Positions 5,835 through 5,896 of a stretch of 6,163 nt of DNA are shown in pieces (the stretch's first letter is position 1; each line of letters begins with the position of its first letter). The stretch comes from a virus. Lineage: Duplodnaviria; Heunggongvirae; Uroviricota; Caudoviricetes. Both the position numbers and the translations under genes were made by a program. The stretch lies in the IMG/VR virus record IMGVR_UViG_2778261354_000012; one strand, written 5' to 3'. Under the pieces are notes generated by a model. It saw only the letters and a list, made by a program, of their open reading frames with translations. It had not been told where the DNA came from and did no database searches.

Positions 5835-5896
5835 CGGTCTCGAAAACCGGAGTAGGGGCAACTCTACCGGGGGTTCAAATCCCCCTCTCTCCGCCA
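5835..5896 (+). tRNA. Partial tRNA-Ser(CGA) (serU-like) 3' fragment, anticodon stem to CCA; not a complete tRNA gene; probable prophage att core
   Basis: CGGTCTCGAAAACCGGAGTAGGGGCAACTCTACCGGGGGTTCAAATCCCCCTCTCTCCGCCA matches the 3' ~62 nt of E. coli serU tRNA-Ser(CGA) as I recall it: anticodon loop CTCGAAA, long variable arm, T-arm GGTTCAAATCC, acceptor 3' strand and CCA. The sequence just 5' (TTTTGCGATTCGGTATCAT) does not match the tRNA acceptor/D-arm, so only the 3' part is present. Confidence 0.8.

Follow-up and report, generated by a model that had tools for sequence, protein, structure and literature searches.

A displaced 3' part of the serU tRNA gene at the effector end of a lambda-like prophage as a probable attR junction

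Does part of a tRNA gene lying downstream of a cluster of effector genes mark the point at which a prophage gives way to the chromosome? The question is raised by positions 5835-5896 (plus strand) of the window, that is, the whole 6,163-nucleotide stretch of DNA analyzed in this work. This segment, CGGTCTCGAAAACCGGAGTAGGGGCAACTCTACCGGGGGTTCAAATCCCCCTCTCTCCGCCA, is identical, over all 62 nucleotides and on the plus strand, to positions 29-90 of the 90-nucleotide serU gene of Escherichia coli K-12 MG1655, which encodes tRNA-Ser(CGA). Given that the 62-nucleotide match is exact, chance is excluded as the source of the identity. The fragment runs from the second base of the 5' strand of the anticodon stem through the anticodon loop (with the CGA anticodon at 5841-5843), the long variable arm, the T arm, and the 3' acceptor strand to the CCA end. 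The 5' 28 nucleotides of serU are missing from the window, and the sequence immediately upstream of the fragment (ending in gcgattcggtatcat) resembles serU at a single base, position 5833. The original prediction that only the anticodon-stem-to-CCA part of a serU-like tRNA is present, preceded by unrelated sequence, is thus borne out by the exact match.

The same prediction anticipated that no complete tRNA would be called, and ARAGORN indeed reported 0 tRNAs over the whole window. A scan of the window against Rfam at E ≤ 1, in which only the best of overlapping matches of the same clan is listed, was without a match to the tRNA model. The scan did return a T-arm-sized piece of the tmRNA model at 5868-5885, as well as a match to the plastid psbI-rps4 3'UTR family, antisense at 5842-5893, that is read as tRNA-Ser derived. 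A promoter scan of 5100-6163 revealed no promoter-like site that could express the fragment, and segment 5835-5896 lacks the complete cloverleaf, with acceptor stem and D arm, of a functional tRNA gene. What it does represent is the block of identity common to attP and attB, in other words, the att core in the broad sense of the term.

The DNA directly after the CCA end is of host origin. Positions 5897-6086 (plus strand) correspond to the native serU-yodB intergenic region and align collinearly with the K-12 DNA immediately 3' of the serU CCA; in prophage-free K-12, the intact serU sits between mtfA and yodB. Of 5426 complete E. coli genomes, 5424 contain this B' flank, with a median copy number of one, and its identity to the E2348/69 backbone is 99.5%. 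At 6087, 190 bp past the core, begins the left terminus of an IS66-family (ISCro1-like) element (6087-6163, plus strand), which starts with GTAACCGGCTC, is inserted into the serU-yodB spacer, and lies outside the att site. Its first base is defined by two other copies of the IS in O103:H2 strain 129, which are identical in sequence from that base onward and have different flanks; at the strain 129 locus, tnpA is annotated 46 bp within the element. The window ends 77 bp into the element, before any chromosomal gene. Consequently, of the stretch 5897-6163 that had been predicted to be backbone, the part up to 6086 proved to be so, whereas 6087-6163 belongs to the IS66-family element.

Some further variation was noted in this spacer. 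The IS66 junction at 6087 was found in no complete RefSeq E. coli genome, and at least 80% of 5897-6163 was covered in only two records, in which the IS is located 7 bp upstream and the sequence is 95% identical. O103:H2 strain 129 carries the same IS66-family element in the spacer at this position 7 bp upstream (position 12080 of the relative's locus). Insertions 7 bp apart imply either two independent events or a local hot spot. As a separate observation, yodB is missing between the serU fragment and zinT in the 382634_2f and AVS0790 backbones, and it is present in K-12, O103 strain 129, MS6193, and O145 RM9872.

Further information comes from the other end of the prophage. This far end and the continuation into yodB or zinT were read in relatives; the genome from which the window derives lies outside the complete-genome collection. 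When 5,426 complete E. coli genomes were searched by megablast with the entire window as the query, 92 of them were found to cover at least 80% of it, and the relatives used were 382634_2f (99.9% identity over 1-6092) and O103:H2 strain 129 (98.8% over 1-6163). In 382634_2f, a repeat finder detected a 62-nucleotide direct repeat of 97% identity with a spacing of 48,514 bp. ARAGORN called the far copy, an intact serU, as tRNA-Ser(CGA) and left the fragment uncalled. The stop codon of a 360-amino-acid tyrosine recombinase is located 8 bp from the 3' end of this intact serU, and mtfA is found beyond it. A complete lambdoid gene set, comprising tail, head, terminase, lysis, Q, replication, repressor, and exo genes, is located between the two ends. 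The prophage measures 48.5 kb in 382634_2f and about 54 kb in strain 129, which shows the same layout, plus IS insertions and a frameshifted integrase.

Both cassette-sharing relatives for which the far end was fetched thus possess serU and int at that end. The resulting order is mtfA, serU (5' part host, 3' part phage), and int at attL, and tail fiber genes, effectors, P arm, serU 3' fragment, and yodB at attR. It had been predicted that an intact tRNA-Ser with the same 3' portion of some 62 nucleotides would be found at the other prophage end, and this was seen in 382634_2f, where the repeat is the 97% one noted above, and in strain 129. Likewise, the interpretation of the fragment as the duplicated att core of a tRNA-integrated prophage is supported by the presence of a regenerated serU and a tyrosine integrase at the far end of these relatives, which the window's own genome presumably shares.

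The differences between the two copies of the repeat permit a more precise placement of the recombination event. The mismatches correspond to serU positions 48 and 59, which form a compensatory pair in the stem of the variable arm. G48/C59 is the allele pair of each of the three serU copies compared from the integrase side, namely, those of 382634_2f, of strain 129, and of vB_EcoM-606R7, a prophage cut-out. In contrast, A48/T59, at window positions 5854 and 5865, is found in K-12 and in each of the 11 fragment rows, which represent 10 distinct junctions because 382634_2f was entered twice. Since the alleles sort by side, the crossover is located 5' of 5854, within the identity block, and since G48/C59 occurs on the integrase side only, the 3' part of the regenerated serU is phage derived and the displaced fragment has kept the host alleles. 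Judged from this sorting, strand exchange would have taken place within 5835-5853 (plus strand; serU positions 29-47), which corresponds to the anticodon stem-loop, and 5854-5896 would be the original 3' part of the host serU. Among the classes of tRNA gene sublocation that Williams is said to have distinguished in 2002, a crossover in the anticodon loop is reportedly the usual one for this kind of integrase.

These data also refine the position of the boundary, which had been placed at about 5896. The boundary itself is real, but prophage-specific DNA stops at 5834, and the exchange most likely maps to 5835-5853, so that the value of 5896 holds by convention, if the core is assigned to the prophage. 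The right-hand border of this effector prophage is therefore fixed by two coordinates, namely, the end of its specific DNA at 5834 and the end of the core at 5896.

Upstream of the core lies a phage-derived P arm of about 119 bp (5716-5834, plus strand), its start at 5716 being the position at which homology to other P arms of the serU type begins. The arm contains the motif CTTGGAATAT as an exact copy at 5723-5732 (plus strand) and as a copy with one mismatch at 5786-5795 (minus strand). In the P' arm beside int, there are three exact tandem copies of CTTGGAATAT with a spacing of 13 bp, plus a degenerate fourth, all within the last codons of int. Elsewhere in the 49.9-kb locus, a single one-mismatch site was detected. 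In 10 of the 11 rows, the arms of which are roughly 84-100% identical to that of the window, the P-arm copies occupy positions -112 and -49 relative to the core; the arm of mEp332 has lost the motif at -112 and retained that at -49. From their sequence and arrangement, the CTTGGAATAT copies look like integrase arm-type sites, and they are referred to here as putative sites of this kind.

Taken together, 5835-5896 is most readily understood as the displaced 3' part of serU at the tail fiber/effector end of a lambda-like prophage integrated into serU, and the junction as attR, with the structure P-O-B'. We assign to this reading a probability of about 93%, the residual uncertainty of about 7% arising because the source genome beyond the IS was uninspected. 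The sequence of events would be the following. The attP of the phage would have carried a copy of serU nucleotides 29-90, and its tyrosine integrase would have exchanged strands inside the anticodon stem-loop. The joining of the host serU 5' part to the phage 3' copy would have restored a working serU at attL, the integrase end. The 3' part native to the host would have been displaced by about 48.5 kb, as in 382634_2f, or about 54 kb, as in strain 129, with its native downstream DNA still attached. The displaced fragment is not a tRNA gene, and no function of its own is required of it; together with the P arm at 5716-5834, it would form the substrate for excision by Int and an excisionase. The nleB2-nleC'-nleH'-nleF cargo occupies the usual moron position, between the tail fiber genes and attR.

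A free phage that has this integrase and a P-O-P' attP was not found in the phage records. The only phage entries with this integrase, vB_EcoM-606R7 and vB_EcoS-689R5, are excerpts of prophages in which mtfA and asnT are included, and they show attL instead of attP. A search of phage records with 5130-5900 did identify the free lambdoid phages ev099, mEp332, and PhiR70_1, all of which carry the P arm together with the 62-nucleotide fragment. In ev099, the CCA is followed by 278 bp of host-type serU-downstream DNA and, beyond it, by a gene of the AraC family, remnants of IS elements, and an integrase. In genomes with a module of the ev099 type, homology extends to about 70 bp short of the integrase gene of the phage, and the next genes are ybhB and bioA. 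These neighbors and the host-like 278 bp indicate that ev099, mEp332, and PhiR70_1 integrate at att-lambda and that their serU junction is an internal fossil. For the same reasons, namely, the host-like sequence over 278 bp after the CCA and the abutment of the prophage forms on ybhB/bioA, the serU junctions of these phages were rejected as attP, and so was the idea that they contain a large attP with extended homology to the host. The mEp332 copy is decaying, with a G-to-C change in the core and a mutation in one arm motif. The simplest explanation for the origin of these fossils is an old aberrant excision from serU that was followed by an exchange of the integrase module. As a side observation, the ev099 module is located at 3004-3462 of the stretch that was fetched, and it is also present in mEp332, PhiR70_1, and strain MS 124-1 (att-lambda locus). 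As the matches of the flank to free phages trace back to fossil host DNA, the prediction that this flank is chromosomal rather than phage DNA stands.

The existence of the same junction inside att-lambda phages means that a serU fragment is by itself no proof of a current boundary and that the context on its far side is needed, a caution that should be heeded whenever a tRNA fragment is to be confirmed as a prophage border. For the window, it raises the alternative that the fragment, together with some 190 bp of DNA from downstream of serU, is an internal fossil attR, carried as cargo by a prophage that is integrated elsewhere. Such an arrangement exists in ev099, mEp332, and PhiR70_1, which carry the P arm, the 62-nucleotide fragment, and 278 bp of downstream DNA internally, and the sequence of the window breaks off within an IS, short of any chromosomal gene. 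However, the examined relatives that share the cassette all have yodB or zinT past the fragment or, in one case, a tandem island, and serU and int were present at the far end of both relatives fetched. Furthermore, for the arm and cassette, identity is 99-100% to the true junctions of these relatives, as opposed to about 91-94% to the fossil copies, and the 99.5% identity of the flank is to backbone of the E2348/69 type, so that we consider a fossil very unlikely here.

The tandem island just mentioned suggests a second alternative, in which the fragment would separate the prophage from another serU-targeting element. In Z1323HEC0423, the same prophage end is followed by the core and then by an integrative element with DUF6387, AlpA, and H-NS-family genes (3501-7181 of the locus); this genome gave four matches to the junction query, which correspond to copies of the serU core, and integrative elements at serU have been reported in O121:H19 (PMC8767318). 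That the window belongs to such an array is nonetheless extremely unlikely, since its core is directly followed by 190 bp of native serU-downstream backbone, whereas homology to the junction in Z1323HEC0423 ends at the CCA (query 1-181). A truncated tRNA pseudogene, in which a deletion, or a rearrangement that was IS-mediated or illegitimate, removed the 5' part of serU without any site-specific integration, might be envisaged in view of the IS66-family element 190 bp away and the scrap of another host gene (ykgJ) nearby. Its probability is close to negligible: the break occurs before gene position 29 in 10 of 10 independent junctions whose P arms have diverged, a full serU with phage-type alleles is found at the integrase end, and the upstream arm shares a repeated motif with the integrase-proximal arm.

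The gene content of the prophage end is given below, the features being encoded on the plus strand except where stated. According to the annotation of near-identical loci, lambdoid side tail fiber genes are located at 197-1516 (N-terminal domain) and 1518-1787 (C-terminal domain); collagen-like repeats were found, and no structural gene of the prophage follows them. The region between them and attR contains an effector cassette (1964-5121). It comprises nleB2 (1964-2944), which matches the NCBIfam NleB family with 697 bits, above the cutoff; an N-terminal fragment of nleC (2978-3265); a remnant of a tail fiber assembly gene (3312-3422); a frameshifted nleH (3586-4497), with 385 bits to NCBIfam NleH over a partial protein; and nleF (4552-5121). 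All of these cassette genes were assigned from the RefSeq annotation of loci that are 98.8-99.9% identical to the window. Two of the four effector genes are thus decayed, nleC being truncated and nleH frameshifted.

The original prediction had placed the effector cargo directly at the prophage end. The cassette is indeed terminal, but nleF ends at 5121, 713 bp before the core, and these 713 bp contain, in addition to the 119-bp P arm, a remnant derived from ykgJ. This remnant of about 98 bp (5536-5633, minus strand) has approximately 93% identity to the chromosomal ykgJ, a gene found in nearly all E. coli genomes, and annotation places an incomplete YkgJ pseudogene with a frameshift at 5537-5625. 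The remnant seems to be another small piece of host DNA that was captured by the prophage end.

Junctions of this type are frequent. The P arm-core-B' span (5716-5960) is covered to at least 80% in 838 of the 5426 complete genomes (15%), and two members of this set that were spot-checked have true serU-locus junctions, in which the tail fiber genes are followed by the fragment and then by yodB or zinT. The serU gene is a recurrent prophage site in Shiga toxin-producing E. coli, and the serU prophage of O145:H28 carries nleB, nleF, and nleH (PMC7067040); a serU prophage and integrative element have also been described in O121:H19 (PMC8767318). In GenBank KU052038 (phage SerU-LTIIb), the same 62-nucleotide piece is annotated as a tRNA-Ser pseudogene beside yodB. 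The window agrees with the published STEC/EPEC serU prophages (O145:H28 and O121:H19) and with SerU-LTIIb in the locus and in the break point within serU. It is 100% identical to O145 strain RM9872 over 5122-5834 and shares the effector cargo of O145, whereas the P arm of SerU-LTIIb is about 92% identical over 5719-5900, and this phage has LT-IIb toxin genes in place of the nle genes. The IS66-family insertion 190 bp past the core is a feature of the window, and RM9872 and 382634_2f are without it.

The displaced-fragment principle also underlies the island-finding software Islander (PMC4383910), and the window conforms to this general scheme of tDNA integration: the target gene is split, a 3' copy regenerates it, a direct repeat bounds the element, and the integrase lies beside the regenerated gene. 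In both cases, the identity block extends from the anticodon stem to the CCA; there is no essential difference, although in the window the block begins one base inside the stem, and the phage and host copies are distinguished by one compensatory pair in the variable arm. Where lambda-like prophages end in a cluster of type III secretion effectors, this is known as an exchangeable effector locus (PMC8112680). The cassette described here, situated between the tail fiber genes and the att end, is such a locus and resembles those described in the clustering of effectors after the tail fiber genes at the prophage end, with the difference that nleC is truncated and nleH frameshifted in the window. 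The serU attR is therefore a documented kind of junction, at a known site and with a known cargo, and it involves no new biology.

A comparison with phage lambda is instructive in this respect. Lambda integrates through a 15-bp core in an intergenic site, and its Int protein recognizes the arm-type sites P1/P2 and P'1-3. The order from int to the tail fiber genes, an accessory region, and attR is common to both, and, by analogy with the lambda arm sites, the two motif copies in the P arm of the window and the three tandem P' copies of its relatives may play a corresponding role. Unlike lambda, the prophage targets a tRNA gene, in which the identity block measures 62 bp, and the P' motifs lie inside the 3' coding end of int.

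The boundary, and the finding that nleB2, nleH, and nleF belong to the terminal accessory region of a lambdoid phage integrated at serU, can assist annotation, the typing of prophages by integration site, and the assessment of excision potential. The attR of the window looks intact, with both arm motifs present, which helps to judge whether the element could still excise.

It is also conceivable, as a tentative and rather doubtful extension of these findings, that the serU attR junction is a mobile and reusable module instead of a passive scar. The block of P arm, fragment, and flank in att-lambda phages points to an aberrant excision from serU and a subsequent swap of the integrase module. 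Additional serU-targeting elements might then dock at the displaced fragment and give rise to tandem arrays as in Z1323HEC0423, and the spacer beyond the fragment has been hit twice by the same IS66-family element, 7 bp apart. If this were so, displaced tDNA fragments would be hot spots at which effector-bearing prophage ends are shuffled between phages of different integration specificity.

Several minor features were noted in and around the cassette. A direct repeat of 45 nucleotides (93% identity) is located at approximately 1823-1867, about 100 bp upstream of nleB2, and at approximately 3516-3560, just upstream of nleH (from 3043-3087 and 4736-4780 of the locus in which it was located), and it may be a shared regulatory element of the nle genes. 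The Rfam family IS009 matched 3187-3397, over the nleC fragment and the tail fiber assembly remnant, with 62 bits compared to a gathering score of 117; the 3' half aligned well, and the structured middle of the model is missing. Just before the tail fiber gene, 111-193 contains a strong hairpin followed by a run of T residues (cagcccgccggttcaggcgggcttttttgt), with a weak match to the Trp leader, and this is probably an intrinsic terminator after lom.
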